Source of the DNA: an uncultured Clostridia bacterium
Lineage (GTDB): Bacteria; Bacillota; Clostridia; UBA1381
Assembly (NCBI GenBank): GCA_934454145.1
Contig: CAKSFT010000006.1
Coordinates: 65,149 to 129,148 of the forward strand
DNA length: 64,000 nucleotides
Direction of reading: 5' to 3'
Positions within the stretch are counted from its first letter, which is position 1, and each line of letters starts with the position of its first letter. Below the pieces are notes generated by a model. The model made no database searches and had not been told where the DNA came from. It was given only the letters and a program-made list of their open reading frames with translations. Shown here one piece after another: positions 6,264-62,964 of the stretch. A program made the position numbers and the translations under genes.

Positions 6264-6449
6264 AGGGGATAGAAAAAAAGCTTTGGAATTAACAAACTGA
6301 ACCAAAGCTTTAGCTTTGGGTTACCCGACGGCGTACATGGGTACGCCAAGCGGTTAAGTTTGTTGATAGCAAGAAACGAAAAATCATATTCTCTATAATG
6401 TGTGCTTTACTTCTTTTCTTGCGTTCCGGAATTTTTTTACATTCCCTCC
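6264..6449 (-). ncRNA. Candidate structured RNA, repeat family 2 copy 1 (three-way junction plus intrinsic terminator)
   Basis: Nested helices:
- AACAAACT 6291-6298 / AGTTTGTT 6357-6364
- CCAAAGC 6302-6308 / GCTTTGG 6313-6319
- GGCGTAC 6330-6336 / GTACGCC 6341-6347
- GCAAGAAA 6369-6376 / TTTCTTGC 6415-6422
On the minus strand the element ends in AAAGCTTTGG...CCAAAGCTTT plus a U-run. A second copy lies at 35302-35539. Confidence 0.35.
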
Positions 6450-14613: not shown

Positions 14614-15111
14614 TTATTTTATACAACATTCACGGCTTTTTTCAAAAGCAATCCTCTCTGTGCCGTCGTCCGGCATATAAATCTTTCCGCAATACTTAAA
14701 GCCATGTTTTTTTATAAGCCTCTGCATCGGGACATTGTCAGCATGCGTATCAATCCTTATGTGCGGATACATACCAAAACAATAGTCAAGGCAAAATCCC
14801 CCTGTGCCTTTTTTTACAGAAGCAATGCGGTGCACAACTCCGTATTCACTGTGGTCCCCCCAGCCCCCTTCATAAATGTGCTTATACACACTGTCCCTGC
14901 CGACTTTAAAATAAAATACGCCGACAATCTTATCTTCATCAAGGCAAACATAGCTCGCTCCGTCTGCAATGTCGCCCAAAACCATTTCTTCCGGCGGATA
15001 TACAGTGCCCCACTGCGACGGATTCCCATGTTCTGCCATGAACCGCTGTGCCGCACGGTAAATCTCCATCACTCTCTCAAAATCTTTTTTTGCTGTTTTG
15101 CGTATTTCCAT
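14614..15111 (-). CDS. GNAT family N-acetyltransferase
   Basis: 165 aa. The size and the ...IVGVFYF...RIASVKKGTGG...N..MQRLIKKHGF pattern fit the GNAT fold. Confidence 0.75.
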   Translation of the reverse strand: MEIRKTAKKDFERVMEIYRAAQRFMAEHGNPSQWGTVYPPEEMVLGDIADGASYVCLDEDKIVGVFYFKVGRDSVYKHIYEGGWGDHSEYGVVHRIASVKKGTGGFCLDYCFGMYPHIRIDTHADNVPMQRLIKKHGFKYCGKIYMPDDGTERIAFEKSRECCIK

Positions 15112-15144
15112 CTCTCGTCCTCTCCCAAAATTTTATAACTATAT

Positions 15145-15360
15145 GGGTAATTGTAAAACTAACGTTTTTCAATTAAATTTCTTGGGTAGAAATAAAAAGT
15201 TCCATCTGATTTTAACTTTACGACAGGCCGAAACTTTTTATTTCAGCCAAAAATGACGCACATGCCGTCATTTTTGATTGCCAATCAGGGGGGTTGGCAC
15301 CCCCGATACTCCCGCAAAGATGCGGTAGGTAATTGTAAAATTTACATTTTACAATTACCT
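15145..15360. mobile_element. MITE-like non-coding element, family P copy A (216 nt)
   Basis: The two ends are inverted palindromes: GTAATTGTAAAAC... and ...AGGTAATTGTAAAAT-ttac-ATTTTACAATTACCT. At least 4 internal stem-loops. Flanked by the identical 15-mer ATTTTATAACTATAT at 15130-15144 and 15361-15375. Confidence 0.7.
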
Positions 15361-15459
15361 ATTTTATAACTATATTCTAACATATGATACCGCAAATTTC
15401 AAGATTATCTTTGCCGTGCCGAAAAAACATGGCCAAATATATTTTTTTCAAAAAAATAC

Positions 15460-15488
15460 TTGACATTTCGACTTTTTTCTGTTACAAT
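15460..15488 (+). promoter_or_regulatory. Sigma-70-type promoter for ylxM-ffh: TTGACA, 17 nt spacer, TACAAT
   Basis: TTGACA at 15460-15465, 17-nt spacer, TACAAT at 15483-15488. Confidence 0.65.
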
Positions 15489-15540
15489 AAAATGCGTTGT
15501 AAAGGTTATGGGCTTTACAAGGACGGAGAGTGATATAAAA

Positions 15541-15873
15541 ATGAGCAAAGATTTGTCAGTAAATATGCTTATGGATTTTTATGCCGAGCTTCTCACCGAC
15601 AAACAACAAGAGGCGCTTGGACTCTACTATGACGATGATTTTTCGCTTGCGGAAATCGCCCAGCACATGGACATATCACGCCAGGGTGTGCGCGACTTTA
15701 TAAAGCGCGGCGAAAAACAGCTTTTTGAATTTGAAGAATGTCTTGGTCTGGCAAAGCGTTTTGATTGTATCACAAAAGAAGTTCTCAAAATGGAAAAACT
15801 CATCAAAGCACTCCCCAAAAAGGACAATGAAAAGCTTTCGGAACAGCTTGAAAACATAAAAAAATATCTATAA
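15541..15873 (+). CDS. ylxM: YlxM/p13-like putative DNA-binding protein (UPF0122)
   Basis: LLTDKQQEALGLYYDDDFSLAEIAQHMDISRQGVRDFIKR is the sigma-70 region-4-like HTH of YlxM. The gene sits directly upstream of ffh, as is usual. Start at the ATG at 15541 (GGAGAG SD). Confidence 0.85.
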   Translation: MSKDLSVNMLMDFYAELLTDKQQEALGLYYDDDFSLAEIAQHMDISRQGVRDFIKRGEKQLFEFEECLGLAKRFDCITKEVLKMEKLIKALPKKDNEKLSEQLENIKKYL

Positions 15874-15874
15874 T

Positions 15875-15907
15875 AGGTAAGGTAAAACGTAAATTTTACA
15901 ACTACCT
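15875..15907. repeat. Solo, partly decayed family P palindrome in the ylxM-ffh spacer
   Basis: AGGTAAGGTAAAAC-gtaa-ATTTTACAACTACCT. Flanked by AAATATCTATAA at 15862-15873 and 15909-15920. Confidence 0.65.
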
Positions 15908-15938
15908 GAAATATCTATAAATTAAGGAGGGTGAGCAT

Positions 15939-35231: not shown

Positions 35232-35256
35232 CGAATACAATATAACCACAAAAAAT

Positions 35257-35289
35257 GGGCTGTAAAAAATCAATTGATTTTTTACAGCC
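35257..35289. terminator. Bidirectional terminator hairpin GGGCTGTAAAAAAT-caattg-ATTTTTTACAGCC
   Basis: Perfect stem with an A-run before and T-rich sequence after. It follows the SCP2 gene. Confidence 0.7.
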
Positions 35290-35301
35290 TTTGATTTTCA
35301 G

Positions 35302-35539
35302 AGGAGATAGGAAAAAGCTTTGGAATTAACAAACTAAGCCAAAGCCTTTGCTTTGGTTTACCCGACGGCGTACACGGGCACGCCGAGCGGCGAGGTTTGT
35401 TGACAGCAAGAAACAAGAAATTATACGAAACCCATTTTTTGATTTTTCTGCCATAATAAAACCAAACTGTAACAATTGTATTTTCTATAGTGTGCGCTTC
35501 ACTTCTTTTCTTGCGTTCCGAAGTTTTTTACATCCCCTT
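35302..35539 (-). ncRNA. Candidate structured RNA, repeat family 2 copy 2
   Basis: Same helices as 6264-6449, with changes confined to loops or giving G-U pairs on the minus strand. About 55 extra nt are inserted in the loop of the outer GCAAGAAA/TTTCTTGC helix. Confidence 0.35.
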
Positions 35540-35551
35540 ATTCATAATGCT

Positions 35552-37525
35552 TTAATAATCCAGCACAACCATCTGGTGGCACTCAAATTTGTCTACAACA
35601 AAGCTTACCGTGCCGTTTTCCGCCGTGAACGGAATTTCGGTTTTCTGCGGTGCAAGATAAACCTTCTTTATGTCTTTGTCGGTTTTGATTTTCACCTTTG
35701 TGTCATAAACCGGCAAAATATCTTCAATGACTTCCACACCCTTGCCCCTTCTCACCGGAGAAGCATAAAGCAAGTGATTGATGAGCCTTTTCTCTGCTTT
35801 TTGTTCCATGATTGTCACGACGCCCTGTGCGCCAAGGTTTGTGCTTATGGTCTTATTCTCATCCAAAAGCAGGTCAAGCGCATGTGTGATGGTTCTCTTG
35901 AGTATCAAAGAGCCTTTTTGTTCATATTCGCCGAATACTTCCCATGCAATGTAAATCCCGTCCTTGCCTTGTGCCATGCCGGGGCCGCCGTATTCAAAGG
36001 AATTTGGCGTGTGTCTGTGCGAGCAAAAATGCTCTACATCTCTGTTGAAATACGGATTTTCGCGCCTGCCGAGTTCCTTTCCGCCCGAAAGCTCAACCTT
36101 TTCCCCATGCGAATAGAACACGTATGATGTGTCAAAAAGTCCTTCCATTTCAAAGCCCGGTCTGAAATAATCCGGGTTATACGGGTTTTCTCCCACATAC
36201 TTCACGCCGAAATCAAACGCAAACTCGTCCTCGTCAGCCTTGAGGCCGCCCTTGCCTGTGGCAAGAATCTTGCCGCCGTGTGCGATAAAGTCATCCAGCT
36301 TTGCCTTAAATTCCGGTGTAACACGCACCAAATCCGGCAATATCATCACTTTGTATTTGTTGAAGTCAACCTCCATGTCCACAACATCAAAAAGATATTT
36401 TCCTTCAAGCAGAATTCTTGCAACGCCTGCGTCTATACCTGTGGTCTTGCCCATTTGTCCCGTGCCGAAACAACCCGAATAGGACTCATAAGAAAATACC
36501 GCAATATCTGTCACCTGATTTACATTGTCAAGCCATTCTTCCTTTTCCTCAAGTTCCGCATAAGCGGCGCCGATAAGCTTGTATGTAGCCATGTCCATTT
36601 CTCCCGAAGGGTGAAGCTGATCACCGATGGAACTTTTTGCACCGTTTGCCGCCGCAAGGCTCACTTCATATCTCAACGCATTGGGATGCTTAAATCCGCC
36701 GAATTCGCCCCAGCTTTCGTGGAATTTCCCCGTCATGCCCAAGAAGTCCATGCCAAGGTTCTGCACATATCTGGCAGAAAGCGGGAAATGGTCGTATCCC
36801 CAGCCTCCCGTCGGCAGTGATTCCAGTTCTATGTGTGTGTTCATGTGTGCAATGTCGCGCCTTCCGCCTCTTATGTGTCCGCCGTTGTGGAAAACGGGCA
36901 GACCGGGCTTTACGGAATCAATTGTTTCTCTTACGCGTCTTGTATAATTTGCATACACTCTTTCCGCCAAATCCAGCACATCTTCAGGTTTTTTGCGGCT
37001 TTTGCCTTCTTCCTCCAGCGTCCTTATGCAATTGTGGCAATAGCACGGCTGCACGCCGACTATGTCCAGGAATATGCCGTCCGCGTCATATCTTTGGCAA
37101 ACCTCTTTTATCTGTGCCAAAAGATAATCCAGATACGGCGAATTCATGCAGAACTTGTGATATCCCGCTGTCATAAAATCCGGTGCCCAGGTTGTGTTGT
37201 CCTCTTGCGATCTGACAAGCCACTCGGGGTGGCGCACTGCCATTTTCTCGTCCAGCCCTGCCGAGAGATATACCGGTGTTTTCACTCCGATTTCATGTGC
37301 CGCCTCAATCTGCGCCCCCAAAAGGTCAAAATCAAGGTGCGGATGCATTTCATTTTTTTCTGACGGGTGATATGCCCAGCCGTGGTGACATTTTGAAAAA
37401 ATCGTAATCGAATTTACATGTCCCGCCTTCAGCGCCGCCTGAAACTGCTCTTTGCTGAATCTTTTGCCTATTCCCGGTATTTTTTCACTGGTGTGAAAAT
37501 CCAGATGTACCTGTCTGAAATTCAT
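35552..37525 (-). CDS. Putative glycoside hydrolase (GH42-like / GHL6 plus beta-galactosidase-trimerisation-type domains)
   Basis: 657 aa. MNFRQVHLDFHTS...ITIFSKCHHGWAYHPS... start and overall architecture. The family call is from memory only. Confidence 0.5.
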   Translation of the reverse strand: MNFRQVHLDFHTSEKIPGIGKRFSKEQFQAALKAGHVNSITIFSKCHHGWAYHPSEKNEMHPHLDFDLLGAQIEAAHEIGVKTPVYLSAGLDEKMAVRHPEWLVRSQEDNTTWAPDFMTAGYHKFCMNSPYLDYLLAQIKEVCQRYDADGIFLDIVGVQPCYCHNCIRTLEEEGKSRKKPEDVLDLAERVYANYTRRVRETIDSVKPGLPVFHNGGHIRGGRRDIAHMNTHIELESLPTGGWGYDHFPLSARYVQNLGMDFLGMTGKFHESWGEFGGFKHPNALRYEVSLAAANGAKSSIGDQLHPSGEMDMATYKLIGAAYAELEEKEEWLDNVNQVTDIAVFSYESYSGCFGTGQMGKTTGIDAGVARILLEGKYLFDVVDMEVDFNKYKVMILPDLVRVTPEFKAKLDDFIAHGGKILATGKGGLKADEDEFAFDFGVKYVGENPYNPDYFRPGFEMEGLFDTSYVFYSHGEKVELSGGKELGRRENPYFNRDVEHFCSHRHTPNSFEYGGPGMAQGKDGIYIAWEVFGEYEQKGSLILKRTITHALDLLLDENKTISTNLGAQGVVTIMEQKAEKRLINHLLYASPVRRGKGVEVIEDILPVYDTKVKIKTDKDIKKVYLAPQKTEIPFTAENGTVSFVVDKFECHQMVVLDY

Positions 37526-37556
37526 AGTTTTTTCTCCTTTTTTCTGATTTTTGCAT

Positions 37557-37590
37557 AGGTAATTGTAAAATGCAGATTTTGCAATTACCT
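37557..37590. repeat. Solo family P palindrome in the 5' UTR of the glycoside hydrolase gene
   Basis: AGGTAATTGTAAAAT-gcag-ATTTTGCAATTACCT. It lies 31 nt upstream of the ATG at 37525 and downstream of the promoter at 37634-37662. Confidence 0.7.
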
Positions 37591-37633
37591 GTCTGATTTT
37601 TACCGTTTTTTTTTGGAATTATTATCTTTTCAG

Positions 37634-37803: not shown

Positions 37804-37846
37804 TAAGATTGTTACATTATTAATATGTAACTGATTATAAAAACAA

Positions 37847-37979
37847 TGTTTTACAATTACAGACTAGAGCGGAAATGACACACATGCCGTCATTTTTGAT
37901 TACCAATCAGGGGGTGGCACCCCCGATACCCCGCAAAGATGCGGTGGCTAATTGTAAAATTTACATTTTACAATTACCT
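37847..37979. mobile_element. Truncated family P MITE-like copy C (right ~2/3 only)
   Basis: Matches copy A from AAATGAC.CACATGCCGTCATTTTTGATT.CCAATCAGGGG...CCGCAAAGATGCGGT through the terminal palindrome. The left part is replaced by a half palindrome TTTTACAATTAC. Confidence 0.65.
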
Positions 37980-38007
37980 AAAACAATTTAAATTTTGGGA
38001 GAATCTT

Positions 38008-39732
38008 ATGCAGCAGAAAAAATGGGTCTATAAATGCGCAAAATTAAATCGCGAAGCCGTCTCGGAGTTTGCCTCCGCACACGGCATGTCCCTTGTCATG
38101 GCAACTGTATTTTTAAACAGAGGCATCAACACTGACGAAAAATTGAAAAAATTTCTCAAAAAGCCGCTTGACTGCATATACAATCCCATGCTTATGCCAA
38201 ACATGGAAAAAGCCTGCAAAAGGATACTGCACGCCATAGACAATCACGAAAAAATAACGGTATACGGTGACTATGACGCCGACGGCGTGACCTCAACGGC
38301 CATACTTTACACATTCTTAAAAGAGCTCGGCGCAGATGTCGGCTTTTATATACCCGACCGCTTTTCGGAGGGGTACGGGCTGAACATCATGGCGGTGAAC
38401 AAAATTTCCAAAAGCGGCACAAAGCTTTTGATAACGGTGGACTGCGGAATAGTTTCCACGGGCGAAGTTCAGCTTGCAAAAGCACAGGGCATGGAGGTCA
38501 TCATCACCGACCACCACACACCCCAGGAGAAGCTTCCCGAAACCATCATTGTCCACCCCGCGCTTGCGGATTCGGAATATCCTTTTTCGTCGCTTGCCGG
38601 CGCCGGCGTCGCCTTCAAGCTGATTCTGGGGCTGGGCATCATGACCGGCATGAAAAGTGCGGATATTTTCAACCGTTATGTCGGCATCGCCGCGATTGGC
38701 ACAATTGCCGATGTCGTGCCTCTTTGTGACGAAAACCGCGTCATTGCCGACCGCGGGACAAAAGCACTTGCAAAAACAGAAAACCCCGGCATAAAAGCAC
38801 TTATGGAAATCGCCGGCATAAACACAAAGGTTCTGACGTCAACCTCGCTGGCATTCGGCATTGCGCCACGCATCAACGCCGCCGGCAGAATGGGCAGTGC
38901 GACAGATGCGCTGGAGCTGATTCTTGCAAAAGACCGCGAAGATGCCTACAAAAAAGCTTTGTGGCTTGACACACAAAACAGAACCAGACAGGCAACGGAA
39001 CAAAAAATCCTTGCACAGGCGCTTGCCATGACAGAGGCGGACTGCAACTTTGAGAAAAAGAAAGTCATTGTGCTCTCGGGAGAAGGCTGGCACCACGGAG
39101 TCATAGGCATAGTTGCCTCGCGTCTTTGCGAAAAATTCGGCAAACCGTGTATAATGCTTTCCGAAGAAAACGGGCTGTGCAAAGGTTCGGCACGGTCGAT
39201 ATCGGCTTTTAGCATGTTTGATGCGCTTTTGCATTGCTCAGACCTGCTGACAAAGTTTGGGGGACATTCTCAGGCGGCAGGGCTTTCCCTGGCCGCTTCG
39301 GACCTTGAGACTTTTTCGCAGAAAATAAACAAATATGCCGATTCTGTCCTGACAGAAGAGGACATGATAAAAACCATTGAAATCGACTGCCGCATAAACC
39401 CGGCTGACATCAGCATGGATTATGCCGCGGCTCTCAGCGCGCTTGAGCCTTTCGGCGAGGCAAACGAACGCCCGGTATTCTCTGTCTGCGGCATACGCGC
39501 GGCATCTGTCGGGAAAATGGGCGCGGACGGCAAACATCTGCGGCTGCGCATTGCGGACAGAGGGCGGCAGATAAACTGTGCCGGCTTCGGCATGGGCGAC
39601 GCCGCCGACACAATCTGTGACGGTGATTTGGTGGACATTGCATTCTGCATCGATATAAACGAATTTAATGGAACAAGAAATGTACAGCTTTTGCTTAAAG
39701 ATATAAAAAAGGCGGCAAACGCCGCATCATAA
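38008..39732 (+). CDS. recJ: Single-stranded-DNA-specific exonuclease RecJ
   Basis: DHH motifs (YGDYDADGVTS, ITVDCG, ITDHH) and DHHA1 GGHSQAAG. Start at the ATG at 38008 (GGGAGAA SD). Confidence 0.92.
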   Translation: MQQKKWVYKCAKLNREAVSEFASAHGMSLVMATVFLNRGINTDEKLKKFLKKPLDCIYNPMLMPNMEKACKRILHAIDNHEKITVYGDYDADGVTSTAILYTFLKELGADVGFYIPDRFSEGYGLNIMAVNKISKSGTKLLITVDCGIVSTGEVQLAKAQGMEVIITDHHTPQEKLPETIIVHPALADSEYPFSSLAGAGVAFKLILGLGIMTGMKSADIFNRYVGIAAIGTIADVVPLCDENRVIADRGTKALAKTENPGIKALMEIAGINTKVLTSTSLAFGIAPRINAAGRMGSATDALELILAKDREDAYKKALWLDTQNRTRQATEQKILAQALAMTEADCNFEKKKVIVLSGEGWHHGVIGIVASRLCEKFGKPCIMLSEENGLCKGSARSISAFSMFDALLHCSDLLTKFGGHSQAAGLSLAASDLETFSQKINKYADSVLTEEDMIKTIEIDCRINPADISMDYAAALSALEPFGEANERPVFSVCGIRAASVGKMGADGKHLRLRIADRGRQINCAGFGMGDAADTICDGDLVDIAFCIDINEFNGTRNVQLLLKDIKKAANAAS

Positions 39733-46830: not shown

Positions 46831-46865
46831 TTGCTTTTGGGAAAAAGGAGAAACAGTAACATTTA

Positions 46866-46912
46866 CTTTTTTCTTCTTTTCTTGTGTTCCGGAGTGTTTT
46901 TACATCTCCCTT
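46866..46912 (-). repeat. Short family 2 module in the eno 3' UTR
   Basis: Minus strand reads AAGGGAGATGTAAAAACACTCCGGAACACAAGAAAAGAAG, starting 4 nt after the eno stop. It matches the 5' ends of the elements at 6405-6449 and 35495-35539. Confidence 0.4.
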
Positions 46913-58537: not shown

Positions 58538-58640
58538 ATCCAAAATACCTCTCTTTTTTTGGTTCTTTATACTATTATATACCAATGCCATACATTTAAC
58601 AAGTATTATTTCAAAATATTCTCCTCACCTTTAGCAAAAT

Positions 58641-58860
58641 AGGTAATTGTAAAATGTAAATTTTACAATTACCACCGCATCTTTGCGGGGGTATCGGGGG
58701 TGCCAACCCCTGATTGGTAATCAAAAATGACGACATGTGCGTCATTTTTGGCTGAAATAAAAAGTTTCAACCTGTCGTGAAGTTAAAACCGGATGGAACT
58801 TTTTATTTCTACCCAAGAATTTTAATTGGAAACGTTAGTTTTACAATTACTTATTTATGC
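58641..58860. mobile_element. MITE-like non-coding element, family P copy B (inverted relative to copy A)
   Basis: The reverse complement aligns end to end with 15148-15360. By manual alignment there are roughly a dozen substitutions and a few 1-2 nt indels. Confidence 0.7.
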
Positions 58861-62854: not shown

Positions 62855-62884
62855 CACTTCTCCTTTGTATAAATTTTTATTCAA

Positions 62885-62913
62885 GTAATTGTAAAACTGA
62901 TGTTTTACAATTA
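62885..62913. repeat. Solo family P palindrome (left-end type), 30 nt upstream of the lipoprotein ATG
   Basis: GTAATTGTAAAAC-tgat-GTTTTACAATTA. Confidence 0.65.
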
Positions 62914-62925
62914 AAATGCTGAGGT

Positions 62926-62964
62926 AAAAATAAAAAGTGTGCAGACACATCAAAGCCTGCACAC
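62926..62964 (-). terminator. Intrinsic terminator with no upstream CDS (end of a leader or sRNA)
   Basis: Minus strand: GTGTGCAG-gctttgatgtgt-CTGCACAC followed by TTTTTATTTTT. Confidence 0.6.

Follow-up and report, generated by a model that had tools for sequence, protein, structure and literature searches.

What is the hairpin-rich segment that sits between two divergent genes of an uncultured Clostridia bacterium, and how did it come to lie there? The question arose from a 64,000-nt stretch of contig CAKSFT010000006.1 (assembly GCA_934454145.1), hereafter the window, in which an initial annotation had marked an insertion resembling a MITE (miniature inverted-repeat transposable element). 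We read positions 15144-15361 of the window as a non-autonomous cut-and-paste (DDE-type) transposon, a MITE, with a probability of about 0.85. This reading starts from features that we observe directly: terminal inverted repeats (TIRs), flanking duplications, copy number, a target rule, and window copies that recur in every conspecific contig examined. The family is a new one of a well-known kind, and no earlier description of it was found in the literature searched.

Ends, copies and target-site duplications

The element, copy A of its family, lies in the 429 nt that separate a GNAT acetyltransferase gene (14614-15111, minus strand) from the divergently oriented ylxM-ffh (15541 onward, plus strand). 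We set its boundaries by aligning 33 full-length copies, which places the termini at TAGG...CCTA. The locus is laid out as follows.

15122-15125, minus strand: target anchor, the Shine-Dalgarno core of the GNAT gene at 14614-15111 (GGAG on the minus strand), with the duplication at a distance of exactly 5 nt
15131-15143: left copy of the 13-bp target-site duplication TTTTATAACTATA, with the boundary at 15144 taken from the family alignment
15144-15361, plus strand: MITE copy A, 218 bp, delimited by the family alignment
15144-15158, plus strand: left TIR TGGGTAATTGTAAAA, which in copy A has a mutated position 2 (consensus of the family, TAGGTAATTGTAAAA)
15144-15177, plus strand: left-end imperfect palindrome, made of the outer TIR and a degenerate inner copy
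15326-15361, plus strand: right-end perfect 36-bp palindrome (TIR, TTAC loop, TIR)
15347-15361, plus strand: right TIR TTTTACAATTACCTA
15362-15374: right copy of the 13-bp target-site duplication TTTTATAACTATA

The initial annotation had described a 216-nt unit at 15145-15360 with a perfect 15-bp flanking duplication. The element is real, but its extent is corrected to 218 bp. Likewise, the 15-mer ATTTTATAACTATAT is present at 15130-15144 and 15361-15375, which are its only two occurrences in 64 kb (chance expectation, 0.12 matches even with 2 mismatches allowed), but its outer A and T are the element's last and first bases, which match the flanks by chance, and the true duplication is 13 bp long. 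The rest of that description held. The termini are mutually inverted, TGGGTAATTGTAAAA on the left and TTTTACAATTACCTA on the right, every internal hairpin listed could be located in the sequence, and the segment is non-coding, since the overlapping open reading frames (ORFs) are mechanical only (42-52 aa). In addition, the first arm of the right-end palindrome is a direct repeat of the left TIR.

The annotation had also proposed that the unit be counted by BLASTN against genomes, and it proved to be multi-copy. We recovered 33 full-length copies of 212-221 bp from the window and four related metagenome-assembled genomes (MAGs) by blastn and MAFFT, and a palindrome-pattern scan of one genome per species found at least 62 loci. 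Among the matches listed, nearly all loci come from a few uncultured human-gut Clostridia MAGs (CAKSDE01, CAKSJU01, CASFSH01 and CALXWJ01). Copy A is 82-89% identical to 31 copies in related MAGs. The 15-bp TIR pair, TAGGTAATTGTAAAA and TTTTACAATTACCTA, forms a perfect inverted repeat and is conserved through the 33 copies. Copies at different loci are 99-100% identical in CAKSDE01 and 99.5% identical in CAKSJU01; identity at this level implies that the family transposed recently in these two genomes. In the window's own species the family looks old: the divergence between copies A and C is about 9%, and copy A carries a mutated TIR base.

The view that the sequence belongs to no described family was upheld by all searches made. 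Rfam gave 0 matches over the window at the gathering threshold, and a permissive scan of 15050-15600 returned unrelated microRNA and small RNA models below threshold. Plasmid and phage collections held no match to the element (blastn, distant mode). In IMG/VR, the TIR 15-mer gave single chance matches and the palindrome pattern one chance match in a small viral contig. A literature search on the TIR string, incomplete in coverage, returned nothing relevant. ARAGORN called a 'tRNA-Stop (tta)' on the minus strand at 15280-15373, in the right half of the element; we rejected it as a stacked-hairpin artefact with no Rfam tRNA match.

The flanking duplications extend through the family. With the element boundaries fixed, we counted a direct repeat as a duplication if it adjoined both ends and was 9 bp or longer. 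By this measure 40 units, full or solo, each carry their own AT-rich direct repeat of 10-14 bp, with a different sequence at every locus. The 25 full copies have duplications of 10 bp (4 copies), 11 bp (9), 12 bp (6), 13 bp (5) and 14 bp (1), and the 15 solo palindromes have duplications of 10 bp (2), 11 bp (5), 12 bp (7) and 13 bp (1), with a mode of 11-12 bp over the 40 units. Each candidate length was a separate alignment at fixed boundaries, so that chance extension does not account for the spread of 10-14 bp, which is real. These duplications are direct evidence of insertion by staggered cleavage, and they exclude mechanisms that leave no duplication. They also bear out, together with the TIRs, the original proposal of an insertion-made duplication flanking a MITE-like unit. 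The evidence for mobility is this family-wide pattern, rather than a presence/absence polymorphism at copy A.

A target rule beside Shine-Dalgarno motifs

Pre-insertion sites were rebuilt and oriented by the nearest gene start, which gave 38 independent sites. At 28 of the 38, NN-AAA-GGAG and then a start codon come after the duplication, whose end is exactly 5 bp before GGAG. G is found at +5 in 28/28 of these oriented sites and at +6 in 26/28, A at +7 in 26/28, G at +8 in 23/28, and A at +2 to +4 in 22-25 of 28. AAAGGAT or AAAGTGAG stands in the same register at several of the other sites. At random or AT-rich positions of the same DNA, GGAG occurs at +5 on either side at a rate of 0.6%, and the target rule departs from this background with a binomial P of about 6e-54. 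Distances from the element boundary to the start codon cluster at 26-39 nt, and the gene is faced by one element end about as often as by the other. Of the two cuts, one keeps a constant distance to a motif that is not part of the duplication, and the other is variable.

The same rule is seen in 6/6 window copies, in either orientation. The window holds two full copies (A and C, 91% identical), one rearranged copy (B), one stump and two solo 36-bp palindromes. The three loci first noted there are real; the copies other than A are these.

58640-58853, minus strand: MITE copy C, 214 bp, with duplication TTTTGCATAAA / TTTTGC-TAAA, then G-GTGA-GGAG
about 37831-37980, plus strand: MITE copy B, rearranged in its 5' half, with an intact 3' half and right palindrome
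62882-62938, plus strand: left-end stump (copy D), preceded by CTCC-TTTGT-ATAAATTTTTATT
37556-37591: solo 36-bp palindrome, with flanks TCTGATTTTTGCA / TCTGATTTTTACC
15874-15908: decayed solo palindrome between ylxM and ffh, with a perfect 12-bp duplication AAATATCTATAA (15862-15873 and 15909-15920)

Several of these units stand before genes. Copy A lies 32 nt upstream of the GNAT start codon, and its target is the Shine-Dalgarno motif of that gene on the minus strand (CTCC-caaaa-duplication). The right end of copy B is 27 nt upstream of the recJ ATG at 38008 (AAACAATTTAAA + TTTTG + GGAG). The solo palindrome at 15874-15908 precedes ffh, with its right-hand duplication followed by ATTAA-GGAGG-ATG of that gene, and the solo palindrome at 37556-37591 lies 5 nt from the CTCC of a glycoside hydrolase gene (35552-37525, minus strand).

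These positions suggest that the Shine-Dalgarno motif is recognised, as DNA, by the transposase or a partner. Selection alone might raise the share of insertions in leaders, but would not yield a single-nucleotide register in both orientations. In a more specific form, the transposase may read (A)AAGGAG and cut exactly 5 bp upstream of GGAG, which would make the element a ribosome-binding-site-homing transposon that places structured cassettes of 36-220 nt; on this form we are evenly divided. No insertion sequence (IS) or MITE targeting a position upstream of Shine-Dalgarno motifs is described in the literature that we searched, although coverage was incomplete and this is absence of evidence only.

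The alternative that survives best, and that we regard as unlikely, is a MITE that inserts widely and survives, or is retained, in 5' leaders only, its Shine-Dalgarno position then being the result of selection. Retained copies could serve as a 5' untranslated region or promoter module, for example as a stabilising hairpin, an attenuator, an outward -35 box or a C-rich anti-Shine-Dalgarno segment. The interior of the element offers some grounds for this. It is strongly structured; compared with dinucleotide shuffles, the copy A segment folds with z = -6.6 as RNA and -9.3 as DNA. Two internal hairpins stand out.

15189-15244, plus strand: long internal hairpin with a 13-bp stem, GAAATAAAAAGTT / AACTTTTTATTTC, the stem invariant in 33 copies
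15249-15275, plus strand: bidirectional terminator-like hairpin, AAAAATGACG-CACATGC-CGTCATTTTT

In some subfamilies hairpins are maintained by compensatory changes, such as AATT/AATT to AAAA/TTTT (6 copies) and CCGCA/TGCGG versus CCAT/ATGG; the hairpin at 15249-15275 shows one compensatory change, A-T to C-G, in L061. With its A-tract and T-tract this hairpin resembles a weak bidirectional terminator, and a simple terminator scan did not flag it. Outward TTTACA boxes, resembling -35 elements, lie in both TIRs of copy A and pair with -10-like hexamers in the flanks to form consensus promoter-like sites. Finally, copies stand before the housekeeping genes ffh and recJ-relA, and in all conspecific contigs examined.

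Set against this is the register itself. Selection acting across the leader cannot give a single-nucleotide +5 offset in 28/28 oriented sites, and the roughly equal orientations are unexpected for a strand-specific RNA function. Copy C adjoins a Shine-Dalgarno-like GGTGAGGAG with no gene behind that motif. The hybrid promoters would start transcripts inside or after the Shine-Dalgarno motif, and we do not put forward a promoter function for the TTTACA boxes. Housekeeping genes with an element between promoter and ribosome-binding site are presumably expressed, which would require read-through.

Mechanism, helper and related systems

By the DDE chemistry that we infer for the MITE, a transposase supplied in trans would bind the 15-bp TIRs (TAGGTAATTGTAAAA). 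The element would be joined into staggered cuts 10-14 bp apart, and gap repair would produce the flanking duplication. Target choice would be anchored outside the duplicated bases, with one cut 5 bp upstream of GGAG in (A)AAGGAG and the second 10-14 bp further upstream, and either element end could face the gene. Copy A is, on this reading, an old insertion upstream of the GNAT start codon that is now decaying, with a TIR base mutated and the right palindrome lost in some strains.

A number of results weigh against the DDE-type reading, and those on the helper come first. A transposase domain was found by Pfam in 0/56 window ORFs, in agreement with the initial annotation. That annotation had also envisaged a longer element with the same termini that encodes a transposase; the window and about 450 kb of related loci yielded neither an autonomous element nor a transposase. 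In the ~450 kb we also looked for two TIRs at a spacing of 240-4000 bp flanked by a duplication, and the one case was a 488-bp MITE copy with a nested element. Proteins repeated among the loci are, by Pfam, ordinary cellular proteins with no transposases among them, and the ORFs, 168,415 aa in all, gave 0 matches in a regular-expression search for the Y(2)R(3)E(6)K motif. Because short-read MAGs usually lack multi-copy IS elements, the absence of a transposase here is weak evidence. A variable duplication of 10-14 bp is, moreover, atypical for most DDE families, and the position beside the Shine-Dalgarno motif could in principle partly reflect selection after insertion.

Empty sites form the second group. 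We retrieved conspecific contigs by exact-protein look-up of ylxM, GNAT, ferredoxin, recJ, trxB and the MBL gene, and all look-ups returned filled sites only. Every conspecific contig retrieved through ylxM or GNAT carries copy A, and copy C is in 10/10 reached through the neighbouring ferredoxin gene; a clean empty site was not among them. The expected site with a single copy of a ATTTTATAACTATAT-type sequence was thus not found, and the predicted empty-site string of copy A had 0 matches in metagenome contigs, a search with no positive control for the presence of the species. GNAT homologues fall from 98% to 66% identity, and those at 66% lie in other contexts. The sole pair with and without the element, L049 and L044, consists of distant homologues whose flanking proteins are 30-48% identical.

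That pair was consequently not counted as a clean empty site. Two other comparisons were also set aside: at the gltX locus of MAG CAKSDE01 (L064), synteny ends beyond gltX, and the intergenic regions of L017, L041 and L018 are too diverged to align. L049 and L044 are divergent gene pairs, each a GFO/IDH/MocA oxidoreductase gene and a neighbour, one with the MITE and the other without. Between L049 1486-1853 and L044 2812-2954, a promoter region of ~70 nt is ~85% conserved (TATGATATAATAAAT.TATC..AATATCAAA..TTTGTCAT), which suggests a common operator/promoter module of a paralogous sugar-metabolism gene family.

Searches for the ends gave no parent IS either. Isolated TIR matches are all decayed palindromes. 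A metagenome scan for a Shine-Dalgarno motif, a duplication and a TIR with no palindrome behind it returned two MITE types (L214 and L216), two chance matches and no IS. Both MITE types are in unrelated metagenome contigs and have the same TAGNTAATTGTAAAA ends with different cores. L214 (1395-1436 region) is ~105 bp long and has an 11-bp duplication, AAAATCAATAA, adjoining CCTCCTTT; L216 (1597-1837) is ~220 bp long and shows no clear-cut duplication. One helper probably serves several MITE families.

The missing transposase bears on a further alternative, mobilisation by a non-DDE enzyme, which we think quite improbable. Target-primed copying or an integrase or casposase-like enzyme would then be at work, and a guide-directed recognition of the Shine-Dalgarno motif is conceivable. 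In its favour are the lack of a DDE transposase in the window and ~450 kb of related loci and the combination of a variable 10-14 bp duplication with one cut fixed to an external motif. Perfect TIRs and orientation-independent insertion are hallmarks of DDE elements, and the perfect 15-bp TIRs and free orientation of this family point that way; no poly-A or 3' tail is present. Variable duplications of ~10 bp are, besides, documented for IS4-family elements, and target-arm specificity for some elements of the IS4 subgroup (PMC2266710).

How does the DDE-type MITE compare with known systems? It is a classical element of the TIR-plus-duplication type, and its anatomy is that of the bacterial MITE as defined in the literature, where Neisseria Correia elements, pneumococcal RUP and MITEAba12 are examples (PMC3184786). 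Like MITEs in general, it is shorter than 500 bp and non-coding, has TIRs and target-site duplications, occurs in many intergenic copies, folds into long stem-loops and lacks a transposase of its own. It differs from them in having no sequence similarity to any family searched, and in inserting 5 bp upstream of a Shine-Dalgarno GGAG. Whereas Correia and RUP duplicate TA, its duplication is long and variable (10-14 bp), and each of its ends is itself palindromic.

The IS4 family would be the best behavioural fit among DDE families, in the sense that the element may work like its members; membership is unproven. Direct repeats are 10-13 bp in the IS4 subgroup and 10-12 bp in IS231 (PMC2266710, Table 1). 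In the family as a whole the duplication is ~10 bp, or about one helical turn, and one element may produce duplications of different lengths; in the IS4 subgroup, certain elements are also highly specific for target arms that flank the duplication (PMC2266710). The present duplications, variable between 10 and 14 bp with their mode of 11-12 bp, and a target specificity that lies beyond the duplicated bases recall the IS4 subgroup, although 14 bp is just above the published range. The ends differ. Published signatures are CAT... for IS231 and -AATR... for IS4 (PMC2266710), whereas the end here reads TAGGTAATTG, with TAAT from position 5 only. Nor was a DDE/YREK transposase found here, in the 168,415 aa of ORFs.

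The initial annotation had likened the element to IS200/IS605-derived PATEs or REP-BIME repeats, a comparison that does not fit. Such elements are also short, hairpin-rich, intergenic and multi-copy, and their palindromic units also occur singly. IS200/IS605 and REP/RAYT systems are known to make no target-site duplication, and their ends are not mutual inverted repeats. That a Y1 (HUH) transposase or RAYT moved the present family in the form of single-stranded DNA, by reading terminal hairpins, is thus the reading to which we give least credence: hairpins at both ends (the right one a perfect 36-bp palindrome), solo palindromes dispersed through intergenic DNA and the strong DNA-level fold (z = -9.3) would suit it, but 40 units carry 10-14 bp duplications of variable sequence, even the solo palindromes among them, the TIRs are 15 bp long, neither end has the conserved 4-5 nt target 3' of which a PATE would be expected to insert, and the window holds no Y1, RAYT or TnpB gene.

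Solo palindromes, decay and meaning

Solo palindromes have the same duplication lengths and obey the same target rule as full copies. They are most simply explained as remnants of internal deletion: the left TIR or left palindrome would recombine with the right-end palindrome, leaving a solo unit that keeps the original duplication. In retaining the original duplication and target position they recall solo long terminal repeats and other internal-deletion derivatives, and some have hybrid left/right arms. The solos L039, L058 and L074 combine the left-end loop and inner arm with the right-end terminus and look like left-end/right-end recombinants. Alternatively, the 36-bp TIR-loop-TIR unit may transpose alone as a minimal element.

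Deletion is still under way at the copy A locus, as shown by two conspecific contigs. L005 and L009 have lost 30 nt equivalent to window 15337-15366, nearly the entire right palindrome of copy A (GGTAGGTAATT|TTATAAC), a loss that amounts to palindrome excision. Other decay products in the family are truncated copies and the 488-bp copy with a nested element. The latter (L043 3622-4109) has an insertion of ~275 bp inside the GGGG/CCCC hairpin. The insertion has inverted ends of its own (GGCATTAGAGATTCGAATCC ... GTTCGAGTCCCTAATGCC), similar to a tRNA T-arm, and probably represents a second MITE family.

A different junction is seen in L010, a 1984-nt contig of about 2x coverage. Its positions 1-880, the 3' end of an unrelated gene absent from the window, are joined to the equivalent of window 15143 onward, at the exact left boundary of copy A (..AAAAAA|TGGGTAATTG). 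Either the element end was the site of a rearrangement, or the assembly is chimeric across the repeat.

The window also holds a second, unrelated conserved non-coding block of ~250-300 nt, at 35250-35545 and 6275-6437, with a partial third copy at 46842-46900. The same block is found at L030 7019-7306, L074 3628-3943 and L041 3521-3791. Its copies are 70-87% identical between one another and between species, with no Rfam match. It adjoins a bidirectional terminator-like hairpin and contains a long-range helix (AACAAACT / AGTTTGTT), and its inner GC-rich hairpin is deleted in L041. The block is a candidate structured small RNA or another repeat family.

For the MITE, the immediate consequence is one of annotation. 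Hairpin-rich intergenic blocks and solo palindromes in uncultured gut Clostridia can be annotated as one MITE family with defined ends, and the element accounts for several MAG contig breaks, such as those in contigs that end inside it (L020, L067 and L076). A fixed landing beside the Shine-Dalgarno motif separates the promoter from the ribosome-binding site and leaves the coding sequence unharmed. If the homing rule is true, the family would have placed cassettes between the promoter and the translation start of dozens of genes, including ffh and recJ-relA, in either orientation and with the genes undamaged. It would then be a natural system in which to study how a transposase gauges its distance from an external motif and how a large structured leader insertion affects expression. 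The transposase, if found, may be of practical use through its 5'-leader specificity, for the insertion of leader cassettes.

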